A stretch of 64,000 nucleotides of DNA, taken from positions 288,001 through 352,000 of the forward strand of contig JAVJQW010000011.1 in the NCBI GenBank assembly GCA_040218735.1. The letters are read 5' to 3'. Both the position numbers and the translations under genes were made by a program. Shown here piece after piece: positions 9,873-48,579 of the stretch. The notes beneath the pieces are model-generated. The model saw only the letters and a list, made by a program, of their open reading frames with translations. It had not been told where the DNA came from and searched no databases. Each line of letters starts with the position of its first letter. The first letter of the stretch is position 1. The DNA is from Deltaproteobacteria bacterium. GTDB lineage: Bacteria; Myxococcota; Kuafuiibacteriia; Kuafuiibacteriales; Kuafuiibacteriaceae.

Positions 9873-12800
9873 TCAGAGCGTCAGCTTGAAGCTCGCGCCG
9901 ACCGAGAAGCCCTTCCGGAACTCGCGCCAGACGCGGTCGAGCTGCAGGATCGTGAACTTCGGATCGAGGAGGTTGGAGCCGCTCAACTTGAGCGCCCCGT
10001 ACTCCCACAGGCGCCAGGTCCAGGTGATGTCGAGGGTCCCGATCGGCTGCAGGTAGAAGTCGGGCTGCATCAGGCTCCCGGTTTGGAAGAGGCGCTCGCC
10101 GATCTGGTTGAAGCTCAGGACGACGTCGTGCTCCTCCCCGTCGAGGCCCGCCTGGATGTTGATGACGTATGGCGCCTGCCCCACGAGCGGGCGCTCCGCG
10201 TTCGTCGCGATGCCCTGGTCAGCGAGCTCCACCGACGAGGTGATGAGCGCGATGTTCGCCTGGACGTAGAAGAGCTCCAGGACGTCGAGCGAGGGGTGGA
10301 GATCCTGGAGCCGCTCGAGATCGAAGCGGCCGCCGAGCTCCAGCCCGAAGACCTGCGCGCCCTTGGCGTTCTGGAGGGTCGAGACCGTCCCCGACCCCGC
10401 GCGCTGCACCGCCGCCTGCTCGATGGGGTCGGTGTAGAACTTCGTGAACGCGGCGAGCGACAGCGACTCCGTCGACGACGGGTACCACTCCAACCTGAAG
10501 TCACCCGCGTCGATCGTCGCCGGCAGCAGGTCTGGGTTCCCGAGGAACTCCTGCCCAGAGTCGGGATCGAAGAACGCCGCCGGAGACATCTCGTTGAACA
10601 CCGGCCGCGAGATGCTCCGCCCGTACGCGCCGCGCGCCTGCAGCTCCTCGAACACAAACCACGTCAGCGAGAGCGCCGGGAGCACGTCGAGCCTGTCGAA
10701 CCCACCCGTGGTCGGCTCCGCACCCGCGTCCGCCGCCTGGAAAGTCAGCACCTCGACGTCGGCGCTCTCCACGTGAACGCCACCGACGGCGCGCACGACG
10801 TCGCCGAAGTTGAGATCCGTCTGCGCGTAGCCGAAGTACACGTCGGCGTTACCGGTGTAGTCGTCACTGCCGACGAACGACTGATCGCGGAAGTCGAGGA
10901 GTGTGCCGGTGGCGGCTGGGTCGTAGAGCAGCTCGGGATCCGTCTCGAAGCGATCGACCTCGGACATGTCGTCCGGCCGCCAGCGGAAGAGCTGCGTCAG
11001 CGCCTCGCGGCGCGTGATCTCCAGGAACGCGCCCGCCTGCACCTTCCACTTCAGCCAATCCTTCTCGCCGTCGAAGATCGGCACGGTCACGTCCACGGCG
11101 GCGCTGACGTCGAGCTCGTTGACGGTGTTGTAGCTGCGGTTCATCCCCGCGTTACCGAACGCCGAAAACCTATCCTGCCCCTCCCGGCGCGAATATTCGT
11201 ACTCACGCCGGTCAGGTGCGTCGCGATCGGCGCGCGCCACGAGGCCCCGCCAGTCGACCTTCAGCACGTCGAAGTCGTGCTGGCCGATGAGTTGCTGAGC
11301 GAGCAGATCGCGCTCGATCCAACTCAGCAGGTAATTTCGAATCTCTCGATCGTCGCTGACCCGCGAGTCGCCCGAGGTGAGTTGGGAGCGCTGCTGAGTT
11401 TGGTGAACCCAGAACGTATTCGTCTGGAAGCTGTGTTTCTCCCACTGCGCCTCCGCCGTCATGAGCCCACTCAGGTTCGTGTTGAAGTCCGTGCGCTGCT
11501 CGACGAAATCGTTGCGCGTCACCAGGCGGTCCGTGCCGGAGAAGGAGCGCTGGATGCGCTCCTGCCGCCTCCACTGGTTGCCCCACTGCCCCGTCGCGAC
11601 GACGCCGAGGGTGCCGTCACCGGGGAGGTCGAAGTTCGTCCCGCCGGTAATCGTGACCCCGACGTCGGGCGGGAGCGTACGCTCGTCGAGGTTGTAGATG
11701 TTCCGGAAGGTCGAGCCGAGCATATTGCGCTCGGCGTCGGGGAAGCTGTCCAGCGACACGTCTCCCCCCTCCGTCGCGACGTTCACCTCTTCGGGGAGCG
11801 CGCGGGTCCCGTCGTCGAAGCCGAACAGGTCCCAGGTGCCCCCCTGGTAGTCGAACCCACTCGAGAACGTGCTGACGGAGTTGAACTGAGTTCCGAGCGA
11901 CAGCTCGAAGAACGCTTCGTCGCGCACCCCGCGGGTCTGGAGGTCGATCAGCCCCGCGCCGAACGCACCCGGCTTGTCCGCCGAGTAGGTCTTCTGCACC
12001 TCGATGCCGCTCAAGACGCCGGTGGGGAACAGGTCGAGGGGGACGATGCGCAGAAGCGGCTCCGGGCTGGGGAGCGGCGACCCATTCCAAGTCGTGCTCG
12101 TGTACCGATACGGCTGACCGCGGATGAGTACGTACTTACCGTCCTCCACCGTCAAACCCGTGACGCGCTGGAGCGCGTCCGCCGCGTTGCTGTCCCCTGC
12201 CGCCGACATCTGCGCGGCGCCCAGGACCTCCGTCACGTTCGACGTCTCGCGCTGCGCCTCGATCACCGACGCGATCGAACCCTCCACGTACGGCGCCGTG
12301 ACCACGTAATCCTTCAGCGCGATACCGGTCGGCGTCAGCTCGACGTCGACCGTGATCTTCTTCGCGGAGATCACCCGGATGTTGTTGAGCGTCTGCGTGT
12401 CGAACGTCGGGTGGATGACGGACATCGAGTACGTACCCACCGGAACCTCCGCCTCGAAGTACCCGTCGTCGTTGGTCACGACCTGCCGATCCGTCCCCGA
12501 GAAGTAGATCCGCGCGCCCACCACCGGCACCTGGTCCTCCGCCGAGAGGATCCGCCCCGTCACGGCACCCGGCGGGAGGGACGCCTGCTTCTTCCGACGC
12601 TCCCGTGCCTGGCGCCGGTCGGCGGTGTCCACGGGCGCCCTCCCCTCAGAGCTCTCGAAGAGCACCGTCGGTGGGCCGTCGGCGTGCAGGGTCACGATCG
12701 CCTGCACGACCTCGTCATCGTCGGTCAGCAAGTCGAGCGTCGCGACCGTGCTGCTGTCCGTGTACAGCTCCACCTTCACGCGCCCCGACGGCACCGTCAG

Positions 12801-12965
12801 CGTCAGCACCCCGTCGACGTCGGTCTCCCCCGCCGCCGAGCCGTCCACGCGTACTTCGAGCCCGGCCGCGGGCGTCGTCTCGCGGAACACGACGAGGTCG
12901 ATGGTGGAGGTCGGCGCGCTCGGAGCCTGGGCACCGAGCGAGAGGAGTAGCAGTAGCGGGGTCAT
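9873..12965 (-). CDS. TonB-dependent receptor with carboxypeptidase-regulatory-like N-terminal domains
   Basis: Plug segment DSNAADALQRVTGLTV...IRG...PLDLFP..GIEVQKTYSAD.PG.FGAG; GNPDLLPA; ends in a beta strand (GASFKLTL). Confidence 0.92.
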   Translation of the reverse strand: MTPLLLLLSLGAQAPSAPTSTIDLVVFRETTPAAGLEVRVDGSAAGETDVDGVLTLTVPSGRVKVELYTDSSTVATLDLLTDDDEVVQAIVTLHADGPPTVLFESSEGRAPVDTADRRQARERRKKQASLPPGAVTGRILSAEDQVPVVGARIYFSGTDRQVVTNDDGYFEAEVPVGTYSMSVIHPTFDTQTLNNIRVISAKKITVDVELTPTGIALKDYVVTAPYVEGSIASVIEAQRETSNVTEVLGAAQMSAAGDSNAADALQRVTGLTVEDGKYVLIRGQPYRYTSTTWNGSPLPSPEPLLRIVPLDLFPTGVLSGIEVQKTYSADKPGAFGAGLIDLQTRGVRDEAFFELSLGTQFNSVSTFSSGFDYQGGTWDLFGFDDGTRALPEEVNVATEGGDVSLDSFPDAERNMLGSTFRNIYNLDERTLPPDVGVTITGGTNFDLPGDGTLGVVATGQWGNQWRRQERIQRSFSGTDRLVTRNDFVEQRTDFNTNLSGLMTAEAQWEKHSFQTNTFWVHQTQQRSQLTSGDSRVSDDREIRNYLLSWIERDLLAQQLIGQHDFDVLKVDWRGLVARADRDAPDRREYEYSRREGQDRFSAFGNAGMNRSYNTVNELDVSAAVDVTVPIFDGEKDWLKWKVQAGAFLEITRREALTQLFRWRPDDMSEVDRFETDPELLYDPAATGTLLDFRDQSFVGSDDYTGNADVYFGYAQTDLNFGDVVRAVGGVHVESADVEVLTFQAADAGAEPTTGGFDRLDVLPALSLTWFVFEELQARGAYGRSISRPVFNEMSPAAFFDPDSGQEFLGNPDLLPATIDAGDFRLEWYPSSTESLSLAAFTKFYTDPIEQAAVQRAGSGTVSTLQNAKGAQVFGLELGGRFDLERLQDLHPSLDVLELFYVQANIALITSSVELADQGIATNAERPLVGQAPYVINIQAGLDGEEHDVVLSFNQIGERLFQTGSLMQPDFYLQPIGTLDITWTWRLWEYGALKLSGSNLLDPKFTILQLDRVWREFRKGFSVGASFKLTL

Positions 12966-12977
12966 CGTCGGGCTCGT

Positions 12978-14132
12978 TCAGCACTTCCAGCGTTCGCCGC
13001 GGCACTCCTGCATCGCCTTGCGAATCTCGGCCGCCTTGCGGAACAGCTCGGGGTCCTTGACCCCCGTGAGCAGGCGTTCGGCGTTCTCGTACTCACCTTC
13101 TTCGAACCAGGCGTAGGCGACGGCGTAGCGGATGCTGTCGTCGGCGAGCAGCCCGTTCCGGAGCAGGTCACGCTCCATCGAAGCGATCATGTCGTAGCGC
13201 TGCAGGTCCAAGAGGATCGCGAGGCGCTGCCTCAGGCGCGCCTTGCTGTCCGCGATGCGTCCGTTCAACGCCAGCGCGCGCAGCGGGAGCCCCGCCGTGC
13301 GGAACAGCTCCGAGGCCTCCACCGCAAGCTCCCCGTCGCCGACCAGCGCGAGCCGCTCCAGCAGCTCCGCCGCCGTCCGCGGCATCTCCTTCTGCTTGTA
13401 CGCACGCGCGAGCGCCATGATCACCGTGCGCTGTCCCGGTCCCTCGAGGTTGGCGGTCTCCAGGAACGCGAGGCCCTCCTCGATGCTCCCGGACTCGATG
13501 ATCGACCACCCGATCGCGAGCTGATCCTCGGCCGTGCCTCCGGTCGCTCGAATGTATTCGCGACCCAGATCCGCCGCGGTGTGGAACAGCCCCAGCTCGA
13601 CCGCCAGGAACACCTTGCGACGGAGCAGCGGGTTGAACGTCGGGTGGGTCTCGATCCCCGCGTCCAGCATGTTCCACGCGGACCGGTTGTCACCCAGCTC
13701 ATGGTGCGCCTCCGCGCGCATCGCGAAGGTCCCCGCGATCGAGCGCGACTTGTCCTCCGCCTTCGCAAACGCCGCGAGCGAAGCCTCCCACTCCTTCGCG
13801 CCGAAGCGCGCCTGGCCGAGGTGCACGTAGATCAACGGCTCGACGAAGCCGTTCGTGATCGCCTCCTCGAACGCGTCGCCAGCGTCTTGGTACAGGCCCT
13901 GGTGCAGGCGCACGAGGCCGTAGAGGAGATGGAAGCGGCCGAGGTCGGTGTCCTCGTCCTCGAGGTTCACCTGCAAGAGCGCTTGCTCCGCGCGATCGTA
14001 GTGTTTGTCGCGCAGCATGATTGTCGCCAGCGCGAGGAAGTCGACTTCCTGCTTCTTCTTTCGCTTCGCCTCCGCCAGCGGAGCCGAGAGCCCCACGGCC
14101 GCGACGAGCGCGATGGCGACGACGAGCCTCAT
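12978..14132 (-). CDS. Periplasmic TPR protein (TtpD-like position in the TonB2-type operon)
   Basis: Signal peptide, TPR-like helical repeats, located directly after tonB. Confidence 0.75.
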   Translation of the reverse strand: MRLVVAIALVAAVGLSAPLAEAKRKKKQEVDFLALATIMLRDKHYDRAEQALLQVNLEDEDTDLGRFHLLYGLVRLHQGLYQDAGDAFEEAITNGFVEPLIYVHLGQARFGAKEWEASLAAFAKAEDKSRSIAGTFAMRAEAHHELGDNRSAWNMLDAGIETHPTFNPLLRRKVFLAVELGLFHTAADLGREYIRATGGTAEDQLAIGWSIIESGSIEEGLAFLETANLEGPGQRTVIMALARAYKQKEMPRTAAELLERLALVGDGELAVEASELFRTAGLPLRALALNGRIADSKARLRQRLAILLDLQRYDMIASMERDLLRNGLLADDSIRYAVAYAWFEEGEYENAERLLTGVKDPELFRKAAEIRKAMQECRGERWKC

Positions 14133-42355: not shown

Positions 42356-42464
42356 GGGCACCTTCCCCCTTCGCGAGGGGAACGGGAGCATACCGCCGGA
42401 CCGTTCCCTTGAGAGGGGGGGCCTCGGTTGCGAGCGGGACAGGCGCGCGGTACCCAGCCGTACG

Positions 42465-43514
42465 ATGTCGAACCTGATCCCCGTGCGTGAGGCGCACCGA
42501 TTCGACGAAGAGCGCCTCTACGCGCACCTCCGCGAGCCGCTGGGCCTTTCCCAGACGATGCAGATCGAGCAGTTCGCGGGGGGACAGTCGAACCCGACGT
42601 TCCTGCTCACCTGCGGCGACGCGCGGTACGTGTTACGCAAGAAGCCGCCCGGGAAGCTGCTGCCTTCCGCGCACGCGGTGGAGCGCGAGTACCGGGTGAT
42701 GAAGGCGCTCGCGTCGACCGACGTGCCCGTCCCGAACGCGCGTCTGTTGGTCGAGGACCCGGACGTGATCGGCACGCCGTTCTTCGTGATGGACTACCTG
42801 GAGGGGCGTGTGTTCGCGGACCCTTCGATCCCCGAGGTCTCCGTCGACGAGCGTCGCGCGATGTACGACGCGATGAACGACACCCTCGCACGATTACATC
42901 GAGTAGATTTCGACGCGGTGGGGCTCGGCGACTACGGCAAACCGGCCGGCTACGTGACGCGGCAGATCGCTCGCTGGTCGAAGCAGTACGAGGCGTCGAA
43001 GACCGAGCCGATCGACGCGATGGACCGCTTGATGAAGTGGCTCCCCGAGCAGGCGCCGGCCGAGGACGAGACCACGATCGCGCACGGCGACTTCCGCCCC
43101 GGCAACCTGATGTTCCACCCGACCGAGCCACGCGTGATCGCGGTGCTCGACTGGGAGCTGTCGACGCTCGGCCACCCGCTCGGCGACCTCGCCTACTTCT
43201 GCATGGTCTACCGGCTCCCGCCGTCGAAGCGCGACCTCGCCGGGTTCCTCGGCCTCGACATCGAGCCCCTCGGCATCCCGACGGAGGAGGCGTTCGTCGC
43301 CCAGTACGCCGAACGTACGGGCCGCGCGGGCGTGGCCAACTTCAACTTCTTCATCGCGTTCGCGCTGTTCCGCCTCGCGGCGATCTGCCAGGGCGTCTAC
43401 AAACGCTCCCTCGACGGCAACGCGAGCGACGCGCGCGCCGGGATGTTCGGCGAGATCGCGAAGGCCCTCGCCGGCATGGCGTGGATGACCGCTCGAGGCG
43501 CCGCTGGCTCGTAG
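42465..43514 (+). CDS. Phosphotransferase (APH / ACAD10-11 kinase-like) family protein
   Basis: GGQSNPT, LRKKPPG, AHAVEREY, HGDFRPGN, LDWELSTLG. Confidence 0.92.
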   Translation: MSNLIPVREAHRFDEERLYAHLREPLGLSQTMQIEQFAGGQSNPTFLLTCGDARYVLRKKPPGKLLPSAHAVEREYRVMKALASTDVPVPNARLLVEDPDVIGTPFFVMDYLEGRVFADPSIPEVSVDERRAMYDAMNDTLARLHRVDFDAVGLGDYGKPAGYVTRQIARWSKQYEASKTEPIDAMDRLMKWLPEQAPAEDETTIAHGDFRPGNLMFHPTEPRVIAVLDWELSTLGHPLGDLAYFCMVYRLPPSKRDLAGFLGLDIEPLGIPTEEAFVAQYAERTGRAGVANFNFFIAFALFRLAAICQGVYKRSLDGNASDARAGMFGEIAKALAGMAWMTARGAAGS

Positions 43515-43564
43515 GCCCCCGTAGCCCTCGCCCTTCGGGCAGTCGGGGTACCTCGCGCACACGG

Positions 43565-45022
43565 CTACCTGCCGCGCGTCCTCTTCAGCGTGTCGAGCGC
43601 TTTGAGAATCGGCGCCTCGGTATCGATGAGCTGCTTCGCGGACTTGGCGAGCTCCGCCACCAAGGTCTCGGCGAGGTTCCGGACGAGGCGCTCACGGGTC
43701 GCCTTCTTGTCTGTCATCGTTCGGGGCTCACCGTTGCGATAATACGTAACGGTAATGGGTGGGCCTAACTTTCGGCGAACGTAGTCGTCAACTGTGAGAG
43801 GACCATCTCGATACAGCGCCTTTCTTGCGATGATCTCGAGGAGGAGATCGCGCGCCTGAAGTGCGTCGCGCGCGGCGTTGGCCTTTCGCGCATAGTCCGC
43901 AGACTCGGCAAAGTTCATGCTCGCGCCAGAGAAGGGAGGCACGCCGAGGCAATGGGCCCACATGGCCTTGTACAGCTTACCTTCGAGCATCACGTCCGCG
44001 CGCTTCACCGCGTCCGCGGAGGCGAACATGCTGAACATGCGAAAGATGCTCGATGCCGCAGACATGTTCAACCAGCCGCCGTAGGTTGCGGTCACGAAGT
44101 CCGCGTCATCGAGCTCGCTATTGATGAGTCCGATGTAGAAGTCGGCCAGCTTCCTCATCTCCCGGTGGTTCTCGACCCACGTGCCTCTCCATAGCTTCAC
44201 GAAGTTGACGAGTGGTTCGTGCATCTGCGGTTTCGCCGTACCGGGAGGAAGTGAGCTCACGGCCACGGCGAACGTGGCGGCGCTACGGATCCGCGTGTTG
44301 CGTGTGGCCAGCCGCTTGGCGTCCTTGATGCCTTCGTCGAGCCGTCCCGCGCGTTCGAAGAGATCGAGCCGGAGCTCCGCCGTCAACCGCTGCTGTTCCT
44401 TGGCGACCGCGGTTAGCTGCTTCGTCTGCTTCGCGAGACTCTTCGTCACGCTCGCTTGCTCGGCAGCGACCTTCGCTACCGCGGGCATCCGATGTTGAAG
44501 CATCTGTGCTTGCGCGCTTGGATTCCGCAACGCCGCCGCAAGACCCTCAGTTTTCCTCATCTCCGCGAGCGCAACGTCCGCGAGGCGCTGGCTCGTGTCG
44601 TAGCTCGGAACCTTCTTCGAACTCGCCTTCGCCGGGGCAAGTAGGACGCGATTGACGGCCGCACATCGCAAGTACGAGAAGGCCGCGATCGCGATTTCGC
44701 CGATAGGGTTGAGGACGAAGAGAGCGCTCATCAGGATGTCGCCGACGGTCGGGGGCGGCTGAACGAGGCTGAGCTGGAGTTCCTTGAGTCGCTCTAGGAT
44801 CGCGGTGTCCGCCAGATCACCCAAGATGTTGGCCATGTCACTTGTGAAGTCTGCCGAGTTCTTGGTCTGCTCTCCGAGGAAACGCACGAGCGCCTTCGCT
44901 TCGGGTACCGAGATCGGCTTTCCGCCGACTCGTTCCAGCGGGCTCCTCTTCGAATCAGCGACAGGGTCGAATTCGATGACGTCAGTGAGGAGTCCCAGGA
45001 CTCTGATCATCTCGGGTGTCAT
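43565..45022 (-). CDS. Hypothetical all-helical protein with a hydrophobic hairpin and coiled coil (island gene 3)
   Basis: 485-aa ORF with lower GC; hydrophobic segment VGDILMSALFVLNPIGEIAIAAFSYL; no family recognised. Confidence 0.7.
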   Translation of the reverse strand: MTPEMIRVLGLLTDVIEFDPVADSKRSPLERVGGKPISVPEAKALVRFLGEQTKNSADFTSDMANILGDLADTAILERLKELQLSLVQPPPTVGDILMSALFVLNPIGEIAIAAFSYLRCAAVNRVLLAPAKASSKKVPSYDTSQRLADVALAEMRKTEGLAAALRNPSAQAQMLQHRMPAVAKVAAEQASVTKSLAKQTKQLTAVAKEQQRLTAELRLDLFERAGRLDEGIKDAKRLATRNTRIRSAATFAVAVSSLPPGTAKPQMHEPLVNFVKLWRGTWVENHREMRKLADFYIGLINSELDDADFVTATYGGWLNMSAASSIFRMFSMFASADAVKRADVMLEGKLYKAMWAHCLGVPPFSGASMNFAESADYARKANAARDALQARDLLLEIIARKALYRDGPLTVDDYVRRKLGPPITVTYYRNGEPRTMTDKKATRERLVRNLAETLVAELAKSAKQLIDTEAPILKALDTLKRTRGR

Positions 45023-45034
45023 CTGTTGCCACCG

Positions 45035-46990
45035 CTACGATTTGAAATCCTCGGCGTCGAGCGACACATCGGTCGGAAGTTCCACATCGTCCGCGACGAC
45101 GAGTAGATCTGTTGGAATTCTCTCACGCCATGTCGCAACGACCGTTGCCTCTTCCGCGTCCTTGAGTTGCTGCAGAATGGCCTCTGCCATATCCGACGAC
45201 AGCGATGAGTCGATGTCCGGGAGGAGGCCAGTGTCGAGGTACGTCTGAACGTAGTGTTCAGCACCAAACTGCACCGGGACGACCACGTGCGCGTACCCCG
45301 CCGACAGAAACTCCCAATCGGGCGTTTCGAGCCGCGCAGTGGCGGTGGCTTTCCATCGTTCGTGATCCGCCCAGTACGACGGATAGTACGTATAGGCCAT
45401 GTTGTCCCAGTCGAGCATCGTCTCTGTCATGCGGATCTTCCGAGCCTTGAATCCGTACATGTCCGCGATGGGGATCGTGTAGTCGCTTGCCGAGAACGGA
45501 GCACCCGTGAAGTTCGGATCGTTTCCGCTGAGTCCGTCTTCGAGCAGCATCCATATGCAAGCTCGCTTGAGCTCGATGCGTTCGGTGTCACGCCGCTGTA
45601 CGCGGCTCGAGGGCTTGAATGACATCGTCTCGATGTTCTGCTCACCCATCGCGGCCGCCTCTTCGGCGCGACGGCGGTGAGACTCAGCCAGCGCTGCGTA
45701 GACCGAAGCGCGCCAGGCTCCGAACGCGGCGGCGGTACGAACGAACGTTACGCGAATTGTGGCGACGAACGAACTGAGCTGTCGCGACACGACGCTCACG
45801 GGAAGCTCGACGTCTGAATCACCGGCAACGTAAGAACTGAAGACGCCATCGCCATCGACGTCATTCGGGTCGGGAAACGCGACGGCCAACGGCGTCCGCG
45901 GAGAGTGGACGGTAGGTGCTGCCTCGTAACGACCTGAGTTGGCTTCGGACGTCGTCAGGTCGTAGAGAGGTATCGAGAGTTCACGACTCTCGCCGTTCAG
46001 CTTTCCCGGGAAAATCGCCTTCGATACGTTACCTACCGTCACCCGCGCTGCGACGTCGTTGTAGGACACGTTTCCATCGAAGTTTATTCCTCGGACCCAG
46101 TTGACGTGAATATTCGCACTCGCGGCAATGTAGCCATCTTCGCCACGGACTACGCCCTGATTGACTGTCGTCGTAGCTTTGCCGTCGTCCGTAACCTCGA
46201 ACGCAATGGATCGCACGAAAGACACCGGGGGAGGCGGAGTGATTTCGACGCCATACTGGACGCATAGGTCGAGATAGTTGTCGACGTCGATATCTTCGAG
46301 GTCGACGTCGAATCGAGACGAGGAGATCGTGTGTGCGGCTGACTTCTTGAACTCAGCGACGATTTCTTTGCGGTAGTAGTGGGCGGGCTCGGGGACGAGG
46401 ATTTCGAGCATCATTCGCGAGCCGTACCGAACCAGGTTGAACTCCTCGACCTTGTCGATCCAACGGTAGATTGCCGTCATGTGATCGTTGTCCACGCTAT
46501 TCTCGAGCGTGTGTGAGTAGGTCGTTTCCTTTTCGCGGAGCAGCCGCTGCTCTCGTCTCAGCCTCGTCTCCTTTCGAATGGCTTCAACGGCGTGCTCGAC
46601 CTTCTCTTTGGCATGTTCGGAGGCGTTGCGCTTCGATATCGCCTCACTCGTCGACTGCTCGAACCCAAAGTTCGTCGAGAAATCGACGAATCCCATGGAG
46701 CCCGACACTTCAGCGCCAATGGAGAGGTTCGTCGACTCACTGGCCTGTTCCTGGACCTCGGACTCGAGGCGGCTTCGCTGAGAAGTGCGGATCTCGTGCC
46801 GACTCTCCTCGACGGCGGTCTCTTCACTTTCGAAGACGTTCTCGCTCCGATGGAGGACTCGGCTCGTCTCGACTTTAGTTTCTCCACGGATGACGTTTTG
46901 AATGTAGGCTATCTCACCGCGAAGGTAGCCGAGCGTGCCGGACTCGAGAACGTAGAGGTCACCAAAGACCGGCTTGACTTTCCTGTTCAC
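45035..46990 (-). CDS. Conserved uncharacterised protein with a beta-PFT-like amphipathic hairpin (island gene 2)
   Basis: 651-aa ORF: GDLYV...Y..GEIAYIQNVIRGE, IYRWIDK...YG.RMM.E..VPEPA, DWDNM.Y.YYP.YW, FLSAG.A.VVVPV, W.ERIPT. I recall these motifs from a widespread hypothetical family. Confidence 0.75.
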   Translation of the reverse strand: MNRKVKPVFGDLYVLESGTLGYLRGEIAYIQNVIRGETKVETSRVLHRSENVFESEETAVEESRHEIRTSQRSRLESEVQEQASESTNLSIGAEVSGSMGFVDFSTNFGFEQSTSEAISKRNASEHAKEKVEHAVEAIRKETRLRREQRLLREKETTYSHTLENSVDNDHMTAIYRWIDKVEEFNLVRYGSRMMLEILVPEPAHYYRKEIVAEFKKSAAHTISSSRFDVDLEDIDVDNYLDLCVQYGVEITPPPPVSFVRSIAFEVTDDGKATTTVNQGVVRGEDGYIAASANIHVNWVRGINFDGNVSYNDVAARVTVGNVSKAIFPGKLNGESRELSIPLYDLTTSEANSGRYEAAPTVHSPRTPLAVAFPDPNDVDGDGVFSSYVAGDSDVELPVSVVSRQLSSFVATIRVTFVRTAAAFGAWRASVYAALAESHRRRAEEAAAMGEQNIETMSFKPSSRVQRRDTERIELKRACIWMLLEDGLSGNDPNFTGAPFSASDYTIPIADMYGFKARKIRMTETMLDWDNMAYTYYPSYWADHERWKATATARLETPDWEFLSAGYAHVVVPVQFGAEHYVQTYLDTGLLPDIDSSLSSDMAEAILQQLKDAEEATVVATWRERIPTDLLVVADDVELPTDVSLDAEDFKS

Positions 46991-47538
46991 GGCGCACCCC
47001 GCTTCAGATGACCTTCGATACGATGTAGTGCCGCAACCAAGCTCGTCGAAGGCACCACGCCTTCGACCGACAAGGCAGCCTCCGCAAGCGCGTCAGGCAA
47101 CTCATCGACCCGTGCCGTCGGGCGTATCCCGATCTCCTCGCGCAAGGCTCGGGCTGCTACAAGGGCCTGACTCGCTGGACGGCTGGAGCCACGCACGGAC
47201 GAGCGCGTCACGGGAGGGAGTCGGAGGCGCGTCCTTCGGTCCACATCCAGAGCCTGGCGGTAGCGGACGATGCGATGGCTGTCCCCGTGGATCTCGGCGA
47301 GAGCCAGGGCTTCGACAATGCCTCGCCGACTCTCTGGGTCATCGCAGCCTTCGGAGATCATGCGATCCGCCGTGTCGTAGATCCGCGAACTCCAACGATC
47401 GTAAGTGGCTGGGCTCGACCGTTGCTTCGCATGGAACGTCTCGATAAAGGACATCTCGACGTCGATAAACTCAGGCCCCGAGCTTCGGCCCAACTCTCGG
47501 GGTCGCCGCAGCGCGACATATCTGAGGACCGTTGGCAT
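46987..47538 (-). CDS. Hypothetical protein (island gene 1)
   Basis: 183-aa ORF with a GGAGG RBS upstream (47551-47555) and a GTGA overlap with gene 2. Confidence 0.6.
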   Translation of the reverse strand: MPTVLRYVALRRPRELGRSSGPEFIDVEMSFIETFHAKQRSSPATYDRWSSRIYDTADRMISEGCDDPESRRGIVEALALAEIHGDSHRIVRYRQALDVDRRTRLRLPPVTRSSVRGSSRPASQALVAARALREEIGIRPTARVDELPDALAEAALSVEGVVPSTSLVAALHRIEGHLKRGAP

Positions 47539-47782
47539 GGGCTGTCGTGTCCTCCACCTTCAGGATGCAGTCAAGGTGTACACGGACGACGAACTGCGAG
47601 GCCCGAAGGCAACCAATGACCGCCAGTAGCTGGCTGCTCAGATCGTGCCTCGCGATGAAGAAGGGGAGTCGACGGCGGGCAGGAGCAGCGTTCTTCTGAG
47701 TGATCGAATCGAATCCACCGACGACCAAGGGGAGTGCTGGCTCGGCCCCCCGAAGCATCGTCAAACCGATCTGCGTCAACGC

Positions 47783-48499
47783 TTAGGTGAGCGCGTCGAC
47801 CACGAAGCGGCCGAGGCCCTCGAGGACCTCCATCGGGATCTCGTGCTGCCCCGAGAACGGGACGAAGCTCGCCTTCAGGCCTGCGTCGACCAGCGCCGCA
47901 TGGAGCTGCTCGGCGATCGAGAACGGGAGGATCGGATCCACGCGCCCGTGGCTCTGGTACACCGGGAGGCCGGCGCGCGCCGGCATCTTCGGCGTCCACT
48001 CCTTCTCGGCGAGGAGCGTCCCGGAGAGCACCGCGAGGCCGGCGAAAGGACGCGCGGTCCGCAGCGTGACGTCGGTGGTGAGCATCGCACCCTGCGAAAA
48101 ACCTCCGACGATCAGGCGGTCGTCCGTGACGCCGAGGCGCTCGGACACGGCGTCGAGGCACGCGATCAACATCTCGCGCGCCGACGTCAGCCCCTCGGGC
48201 ACGTCGCGGGTGAGGTCGCGGACCTGTCCGGTCATCATCGCGCGCTGCATGCGCTCCATGTCGATCATCCACCAGGCGCGCGCCGGCACGCCGAACATGT
48301 GGTCGAGCGCGAGCGGCGCCTCCGGGAAGACGAAGCGCGTCCCGGTCGGGGCGTCGATGTAGTTCGCGAGGGGGACGAGGTCGGTGCCGGTGGCGCCGAA
48401 GCCGTGCAACAGCACCACCACCGGACCGTCCCCCGAACCGCGTCCGTCGTCCCCACCGAGGATCCGGACGTTCAACGGTCCGAGCTTCTCCACCTGCAT
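47783..48499 (-). CDS. Alpha/beta hydrolase, phospholipase/carboxylesterase family
   Basis: LLHGFGA, FVFPEAP, GGFSQGAM, HGRVDPILP, GQHEI. Confidence 0.9.
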   Translation of the reverse strand: MQVEKLGPLNVRILGGDDGRGSGDGPVVVLLHGFGATGTDLVPLANYIDAPTGTRFVFPEAPLALDHMFGVPARAWWMIDMERMQRAMMTGQVRDLTRDVPEGLTSAREMLIACLDAVSERLGVTDDRLIVGGFSQGAMLTTDVTLRTARPFAGLAVLSGTLLAEKEWTPKMPARAGLPVYQSHGRVDPILPFSIAEQLHAALVDAGLKASFVPFSGQHEIPMEVLEGLGRFVVDALT

Positions 48500-48579
48500 G
48501 GGTGCGCGGTTACCGGCGCGAGTGTGATCGCGTCAACGGACCATTTGACGCGCCGTTTGACTGTACGGTGAACGTGTCG

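Follow-up and report, generated by a model that had tools for sequence, protein, structure and literature searches.

The 64,000-nt stretch of deltaproteobacterial DNA analysed here (the window; positions 288,001 to 352,000 of contig JAVJQW010000011.1, assembly GCA_040218735.1) carries, between two housekeeping genes, an island of three co-oriented genes, which we call genes 1, 2 and 3 in order of transcription. On our best reading, a protein of a very large family is encoded here in two naturally separate pieces, by genes 1 and 2, and gene 3 occupies a hypervariable slot downstream of it. We propose tentatively, at a probability of roughly 0.4, that the island arrived by horizontal transfer and is an as yet unnamed kind of two-part toxin cassette, used against other cells. 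The conserved protein would oligomerise and insert an amphipathic β-hairpin into a membrane, giving a β-barrel pore or a translocation stem; the hairpin would form the tip of an insertion of 78 residues (gene 2 residues 61–138) between two very long β-strands. The downstream protein would be the toxic partner, admitted or assisted by the pore. In relatives this partner would be a phospholipase, an arginine deiminase, a peptidase, an RNase or a cell-wall hydrolase, and here a helical protein with one hydrophobic segment (gene 3). The targets would be other cells, in competition or predation, with release by lysis or some other route rather than through a dedicated secretion system. Both the formation of a pore or stem by the conserved protein and the toxic role of its partner are what we infer from sequence patterns.

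Gene 2 has abundant relatives. An exhaustive HMMER search of 1.84 billion representative proteins (clusters at 50% identity) returned 2943 homologues at E ≤ 1e-3, 2273 at E ≤ 1e-10 and 1187 at E ≤ 1e-30, with a best non-self E-value of 1.9e-62. Most of the best 150 relatives are 900–1100 residues long and align to gene 2 from their own residue ~350–400; a minority, of 602–654 residues, start where gene 2 starts. Residues 1–651 of gene 2 align over their full length with relatives at 20–29% identity in an alignment of 37 members (A1), in which E37, G100, P202, W426, W528, F561, W621 and T627 are invariant. Gene 2 has the sequence marks of what we term the 'GEIAHIENVL' family (signature motif, hairpin, aromatic C-terminal domain) and belongs to it. 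A scan for the signature-motif pattern, with one genome per species, recovered 542 relatives among the 600 matches listed.

The 80 related loci that we retained span Bacteroidota (many), Cyanobacteria, Actinomycetota, Alpha-, Beta- and Gammaproteobacteria, Myxococcota, Acidobacteriota, Verrucomicrobiota and one haloarchaeon, and the family is present in Bacillota as well. Fourteen plasmid records carry it, among them one from Bacillus thuringiensis and one from Natronorubrum. Within the host's own phylum its occurrence is sporadic (8 of 201 genomes, this one included), and none of the 19 other genomes of the host's taxonomic family has it. It is absent from all 50,697 phage records; on that count, and for lack of a PHROGs match, an origin of gene 2 as a phage-derived structural protein was rejected.

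This large family has no name, domain model, structure or paper that we could find. Pfam searches gave 0 families for gene 2 at E ≤ 1 and 0 for nine relatives at E ≤ 0.01, and NCBIfam matched none of the 37 members of A1. The plasmid copies are labelled 'hypothetical protein' in RefSeq, as are the only two of ten representatives looked up that have cluster names. Neither sequence nor profile searches found a relative of gene 2 in the PDB, where matches stayed at chance level. A literature search, with supplementary files and subscription journals outside its scope, found no published description.

The most distinctive conserved feature of the family, as judged from its sequences, is the amphipathic hairpin. 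In column statistics for 127 members, positions 89, 91, 93, 95, 97 and 99 and positions 102, 104, 106, 108 and 110 were hydrophobic in a fraction of 0.61–0.97, and the interleaved positions were mainly small or polar (≤0.12 hydrophobic). At the turn (100–101), position 100 was small in 0.98 of members (Gly in 0.94) and position 101 was Pro in 0.58. All 127 aligned members possess an amphipathic hairpin with a Gly-Pro-type turn of this sort, which bears out the hairpin like those of β-pore-forming toxins that had been noted from gene 2 by itself. Glu, Arg, Thr and Gln abound in the 20–25 residues on either side. A hairpin in which hydrophobic residues alternate with small or polar ones, leaving one side to face lipid, is a signature of β-barrel pore formers; across the 127 members the family hairpin alternates in this way and is long enough to span a bilayer. 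A role in the membrane is what this pattern suggests.

An AlphaFold2 (AF2) model of gene 2 built from A1 (37 rows) had a mean predicted local distance difference test score (pLDDT) of 67.8. It predicts two very long β-hairpins, with strands 5–34/37–60 and 139–162/170–200, separated by a poorly predicted insertion with two helices. These would be followed by a β-sandwich (257–418), a long helix pair (420–482) and an α/β C-terminal domain, the part that bears the invariant aromatic residues of A1. Searched against BFVD, the model gave three matches at E ≤ 1e-3, to virion structural proteins, which we dismissed as generic β-sandwich similarity given their template-modelling (TM) scores of ≤0.14. 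A four-copy oligomer prediction for residues 1–215 with A1, run without controls, scored 0.00, which we count neither for nor against an oligomer. Gene 2 showed no sequence or profile similarity to the known β-barrel pore-former families (aerolysin/ETX-MTX2, leukocidin, MACPF/CDC, gasdermin and Binary_toxB), all of which we take to have Pfam models.

What accompanies the family gene elsewhere? Among the 75 of the 80 loci in which it was called, 59 had a co-oriented open reading frame (ORF) directly downstream, mostly within 100 nt, and in 52 of these 59 the ORF encoded at least 300 residues. These 52 partners fell into 26 groups without phmmer cross-similarity. Their Pfam domains included Patatin in eight, PAD in five, PLDc or PLDc_2 in two, Tox-MPTase4 in two, and Het-C, EndoU_bacteria, CdiA_C, PT-TG, Glyco_hydro_19 and Peptidase_M23 in one each; at most 23 of the 52 carried a toxin-like domain. 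A hydrophobic window of ≥1.6 was present in 28 of the 52, as it is in gene 3. The downstream slot is hypervariable and enriched in toxin-type enzymes.

Closely similar family genes can stand beside unrelated partners. Among the 88 pairs of family proteins at ≥40% identity, 69 had unrelated partners. At L035 and L043 the family proteins are 92.8% identical and the partners unrelated, and the DNA homology (88%) begins just upstream of the family gene and ends at the start codon of the partner. In these two flavobacterial loci (L035, 7208–10039; L043, 7204–10039) the 88%-identical block of 2.8 kb consists of the family gene and short flanks, and everything outside it, partner included, is unrelated. 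Because the homology covers just that gene and its short flanks, the family gene seems to move or recombine as a unit. These comparisons indicate that partners are exchanged as whole genes. In both its domains and its swaps, the slot behaves as would befit the cargo or effector role that had been suggested for the gene after gene 2.

In 11 of the 52 partners, drawn from several unrelated groups, we found a short N-terminal motif (G[FY]x[SP]P or SPFG type, a pattern defined post hoc), against 2 occurrences among the 143 neighbouring ORFs and 1 among 387 internal windows. Its form is F-x-F-x-D-x-x-G-[FY]-x-[SP]-P or SPFGE within the first 70 residues, and the partners that carry it are those at L040, L043, L045, L046, L056, L062, L071, L073, L077, L082 and L083. 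Gene 3 fits only the loosest branch of the pattern. The motif may be a docking or loading tag.

At 28 of the 52 loci a third, tightly placed and co-oriented ORF followed the partner. One encoded Immunity protein 22 (Imm22; E 1.8e-21), one Ntox5, one a second patatin and one, weakly, a BrnA antitoxin (E 0.0084); the other 24 had no family. Such loci resemble polymorphic-toxin loci. The wider surroundings had no constant content. The 143 flanking ORFs, two per side from the first ~48 of the 75 loci, contained 113 Pfam families, each in at most two ORFs, and had no additional gene in common. No secretion apparatus was among the 25 Pfam families listed for them. Por_Secre_tail occurred in two neighbouring ORFs and was not among the 15 families of the 52 partners. 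The same ORFs matched 139 PADLOC models. The 25 models listed were restriction-modification parts, one mad2 model and the candidate PDC-S07, each in at most two ORFs; counted without a background rate, they gave no clear defence-island signal.

The island itself is an insertion, as the preliminary description of this stretch had proposed. In a same-genus genome (G001, contig C1376; an assembly that is 75% complete) the orthologous stop codons of the two flanking genes lie 8 nt apart, compared with 4268 nt here. That contig holds the 3′ end of the phosphotransferase gene and the entire carboxylesterase gene, and its gene order matches that of the present genome, with DUF1232 and then peroxiredoxin genes after the carboxylesterase. 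Because only 8 nt occupy the same site in a same-genus genome, the 4268 bp are an indel relative to that congener; the island is an acquired cassette. Its guanine-plus-cytosine (GC) fraction in 500-nt windows is 0.55–0.64 over positions 43500–47750, against 0.66–0.73 in the flanks. No tRNA gene lies within the window, and the island ends carry no convincing direct or inverted repeats, only short pairs at chance level. A scan with the sigma-70 consensus, which may not suit hosts with other promoter types, found 0 promoters, and the one terminator-like site lies inside gene 2, fewer than in shuffled sequence.

All the outward features reported earlier for the three genes were found again: their orientation, tight coupling, sizes and lower GC, the 4 nt (GTGA) shared by the stop of gene 1 and the start of gene 2, and the 12-nt spacer between genes 2 and 3 (45023–45034). 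The same holds for the reported lack of signal peptides and of known families. A Kyte–Doolittle scan with 19-residue windows gave no sign of an N-terminal signal in genes 1 to 3; windows of ≥1.6 were absent from genes 1 and 2 and, in gene 3, lay only internally, with the peak at residues 96–114. None of the three had a credible match in Pfam, PADLOC, NCBIfam or PHROGs.

Are these frames real genes? An independent 47-kb contig from another study differs from positions 42800–48500 by 47 substitutions and 0 indels. The following tallies rest on the 40 of these 47 substitutions that were listed: 19 synonymous and 1 non-synonymous in gene 2, 9 and 2 in gene 1, 1 and 0 in gene 3, and 6 and 1 in the kinase, with one further listed change at 43515, just beyond the kinase stop and in no gene. 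Genes 1 and 2 are coding, each under purifying selection in its own frame, and gene 3 has too few changes for selection to be judged. Because the independent contig spans the region without indels, the split between genes 1 and 2 is not an assembly error. Divergence is uneven along the island, with 1 listed substitution in the 1458 nt of gene 3, 20 in the 1956 nt of gene 2 and 11 in the 552 nt of gene 1; up to seven more fall outside the list.

Gene 1 had been taken for a separate cap or chaperone. It had no BLAST or phmmer relatives. Most members of the family are ~950 residues long, with ~370 N-terminal residues more than gene 2, and because of this gene 1 is probably a detached, shortened N-terminal region of a family protein. 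Its first residues, TVLRYVALRRPRE, align to the very start of the profile (consensus FRFvalRpPq) for the N-terminal extension of the family. The match of its LRYVALR motif to the N-terminal profile is weak (E 0.035, three targets), as is that to the profile of a subgroup with short extensions (E 0.012). Among 118 full-length members, 62 have a loose pattern of the LRYVALR type, chosen post hoc, within their first 30 residues. At four other loci (L012, L031, L069 and L079) a short-form gene is directly preceded by an ORF of 229–387 residues that clusters with the family, and split versions therefore recur. The longer relatives, the recurring splits and the weak LRYVALR match make a detached N-terminal region likelier than a cap or chaperone.

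Gene 3 is an orphan. The large protein search returned only its own cluster, and it was found in 0 of 60 related genomes. It matched nothing in the neighbourhood of this genome's other family copy (described below) and none of the 52 partners below E 0.5. The Atlas offered no usable feature match (structure rows at TM ≤0.30). A single-sequence AF2 model was all-helical at pLDDT 42, a score at which we judged it unusable for fold search. The internal hydrophobic segment described for gene 3 is there, at the hydropathy peak, whereas for the coiled coil there is just this low-confidence helical model. The segment is possibly membrane-inserting, and gene 3 would then be a membrane-active effector. 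Nor do the three genes form a linked unit elsewhere, as had been envisaged: genes 1 and 3 have no detectable relatives, and what is conserved is the family gene followed by a variable downstream gene. The earlier idea of a pore-like protein with a cargo stands in part, since the conserved hairpin and the cargo-like slot support it and widen it to a large family; the roles given to genes 1 and 3 had to be revised.

Table 1. Features of the island and its surroundings (positions in the window unless a contig is named)
Feature	Position	Strand	Description
Inserted island, 4268 bp	43515..47782		Between the phosphotransferase and carboxylesterase stops
APH-family phosphotransferase (kinase)	42462-43514	+	Flank; convergent with gene 3
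Gene 3, 485 aa	43565..45022	-	ATG start; orphan, predicted all-helical; in variable downstream slot
Gene 3 hydrophobic segment, residues 96-114	44681..44737	-	ILMSALFVLNPIGEIAIAA; Kyte–Doolittle 19-residue mean 1.88
Gene 2, 651 aa	45035..46990	-	GTG start; family core; predicted long β-hairpins, β-sandwich, long helix, aromatic-rich C-terminal α/β domain
Conserved amphipathic β-hairpin, gene 2 residues 89-110	46661..46726	-	LSIGAEVSGSMGFVDFSTNFGF; from 127-member column statistics
Signature motif, gene 2 residues 25-34	46889..46918	-	GEIAYIQNVI (consensus GEIAHIENVL); from alignment A1
Gene 1, 183 aa	46987..47538	-	ATG start; probable detached, shortened N-terminal region of family protein
Non-coding leader, 244 nt	47539..47782	-	5′ of gene 1, within inserted DNA; presumed promoter region
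Abhydrolase_2 carboxylesterase	47783-48499	-	Other flank; housekeeping neighbour
Paralogue (L003)	11035-13755 (G000 contig C43:8000-27999)	-	Full-length family copy

Several of these results weigh against a toxin cassette aimed at other cells. The searches turned up neither signal peptides nor linked secretion genes, which leaves export unexplained, and activity, oligomer and membrane binding are all predictions from sequence. Gene 3 has neither a toxin domain nor relatives; only 50 nt separate it from the convergent kinase, and no ORF follows as a candidate for immunity. The AF2 model of gene 2 falls below pLDDT 50 across residues 53–150, including residues 82–119 around the hairpin, and the alternating pattern would equally fit a strand with one buried face. 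Foldseek found 0 matches to the model in the PDB at E ≤ 1e-3, with best rows at TM ≤0.14. In the relatives, ORFs came from our own longest-ORF heuristic rather than a gene finder, 16 of the 75 loci have no co-oriented downstream ORF, at least 29 of the 52 partners lack a toxin-like Pfam domain, one partner is a Mur ligase that is probably an unrelated neighbour, and a known immunity family was seen in just 1 of the 28 third ORFs.

The same parts could instead act inside the producer, as an abortive-infection or programmed-death module in which infection or damage, sensed by the conserved protein, would lead it to open the producer's own membrane, and the variable partner (a lipase, nuclease, peptidase, wall hydrolase or membrane protein) would complete the killing. 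We consider this possible and rather unlikely. A self-contained cassette without signal peptides or nearby secretion genes would suit such a role, as would the sporadic, island-like occurrence (with the plasmid records), the spread over archaea, monoderm bacteria and diderm bacteria, a range that no one secretion route covers, and the lack of an immunity-like gene after gene 3 in the window. Patatin, phospholipase D (PLD), nuclease, peptidase and transmembrane-like proteins are effectors in known defence systems, a point that we count in its favour. The proteins themselves match no PADLOC model (PADLOC-DB 2.0, E ≤ 1, 0 families for genes 1–3), and the neighbourhoods are not obviously defence islands, since each of the 25 listed models occurs in at most 2 of the 143 flanking ORFs. 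PT-TG, CdiA_C, Tox-MPTase4, Ntox5 and Imm22, together with the recurrent motif at the partners' N-termini, point instead to delivered toxins. The absence from phage records we count as neutral. Polymorphic-toxin domains, wall hydrolases, the partner tag and the Imm22 gene tip us slightly towards use against other cells.

Whichever cell is the target, the conserved protein might be no pore former at all; it might be a scaffold, a regulator, an inhibitor, or a surface or structural protein, its hairpin an ordinary sheet element with one buried face. Consistent with this, no fold or profile links it to any pore-former family, the strands that flank the hairpin are highly charged, the BFVD matches, weak as they are (TM ≤0.14), were to virion structural proteins, and in this genome an ORF with a phage tail Collar domain comes after the paralogue. 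We hold it unlikely nonetheless. The Gly/Ser/Thr-rich alternation and the Gly-Pro turn are kept across phyla at ~25–30% overall identity, AF2 leaves the hairpin unpacked from the fold, and a mere regulator would not be expected to hold one architecture while the enzyme class of its partner changes. That the island is a decaying remnant, with the split between genes 1 and 2 a frameshift in a dying gene and gene 3 spurious or non-functional, is very improbable: most members are indeed single proteins of ~950 residues and genes 1 and 3 lack relatives, but synonymous changes outnumber non-synonymous ones 19:1 in gene 2 and 9:2 in gene 1, the independent contig shows 0 indels over 5.7 kb, split forms recur at four loci, and stand-alone short forms of 602–654 residues are among the best matches.

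Some individual loci merit separate description. The five PAD partners (L005, L007, L009, L013 and L053) are proteins of 924–960 residues with a eukaryote-type protein-arginine deiminase domain (PF03068, best E 2.9e-38), an unusual type of effector for a bacterial conflict locus; their hosts belong to Cyanobacteria, Bacteroidota (Chryseolinea), Chloroflexota (Anaerolinea), Verrucomicrobiota and Acidobacteriota. On plasmid p01 of Bacillus thuringiensis HD-771 (L084, 6945–10996), a member of 967 residues is paired with an unannotated partner of 383 residues, and its neighbours include DUF6037, DUF6094 and DEAD/DEAH helicase genes. The present genome has a second full-length family copy on another contig (a 967-residue frame, ~23% identical to gene 2). 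The ORF with the Collar domain that follows it encodes 322 residues and is itself followed by an ORF of 1285 residues with Ser/Thr kinase and AAA_16/NACHT-like ATPase domains.

If the two-part toxin cassette is real, what would it mean? The hairpin signature and the slot, swappable by whole genes and stocked with phospholipases, nucleases, peptidases, wall hydrolases and arginine deiminases, suggest a general component of toxin delivery or execution. Confirmation would account for the use of many 'orphan' toxin-domain genes that lack secretion signals, and would make the position downstream of a family gene a handle for finding candidate effectors; the family might also supply a new pore or translocation scaffold. 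For this genome, the island would represent a recent, strain-level gain of a likely weapon or suicide module. A bolder form of the proposal, which we think improbable as it stands, is that the family is a binary translocase across bacteria and archaea that works independently of secretion systems, with residues 61–138 refolding into a long β-barrel stem with a hydrophobic tip and a downstream effector, swappable as a whole gene and recognised by its short N-terminal tag, delivered through the stem or beside it. Such a translocase would add a new way of trafficking polymorphic toxins and, in this host, might serve as a weapon of predation.

How does the cassette compare with systems already described? 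Bacterial gasdermin-type death modules pair a pore former with an adjacent activating gene. They share with the present family a cytoplasmic protein without a signal peptide, possible insertion of a β-hairpin and sporadic, island-like spread. In contrast to them, gene 2 has no gasdermin Pfam match, is much larger and has an extra β-sandwich and a C-terminal domain, and the partners are mostly not proteases. For gene 3, the nearest likeness is to α-helical pore formers of the ClyA/Hbl/YaxAB type, in that it is predicted to be all-helical with one hydrophobic stretch near residue 100; it has no profile match to them, offers no relatives for building a profile of its own, and its model (pLDDT 42) is too poor for a fold comparison.

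Binary AB toxins such as anthrax protective antigen (Binary_toxB) come closer. Like them, the family has a long insertion tipped by a Gly/Ser-rich amphipathic hairpin, separate enzyme genes as partners, and a short N-terminal motif common to several unrelated partners. Unlike them, gene 2 shows no sequence, profile or fold match and no signal peptide, the family has no evidence of receptor binding, proteolytic activation or oligomerisation, and it also occurs in archaea and Bacteroidota.

Polymorphic toxin systems draw on a variable pool of toxin domains (Zhang et al. 2012, PMC3482391), and the parts of that paper that we consulted make no mention of such a gene. As far as those parts describe these systems, the likenesses are that partners and third ORFs come from the same pool (Tox-MPTase4, EndoU, CdiA_C, PT-TG, Het-C and Ntox5), that the toxic module is replaced beside a conserved component, and that in some relatives' loci the toxin is followed by a small gene, in one case Imm22. 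By the same account a difference is that the toxin is here a separate gene and not a C-terminal fusion to a trafficking protein. The conserved component here is an unnamed family, the Pfam families listed for the flanking ORFs include no component of type II, V, VI or VII secretion systems (T2SS, T5SS, T6SS, T7SS) or of PVC or Tc systems, and gene 3 has neither a known toxin domain nor an immunity candidate. Because its toxin is unfused, it has no known trafficking route and it matches no family, the cassette lies outside both the polymorphic toxin and the binary AB classes on their defining features; it also matches no catalogued defence system. By analogy, nonetheless, the systems whose working it would most resemble are the polymorphic toxin systems and the binary AB toxins.

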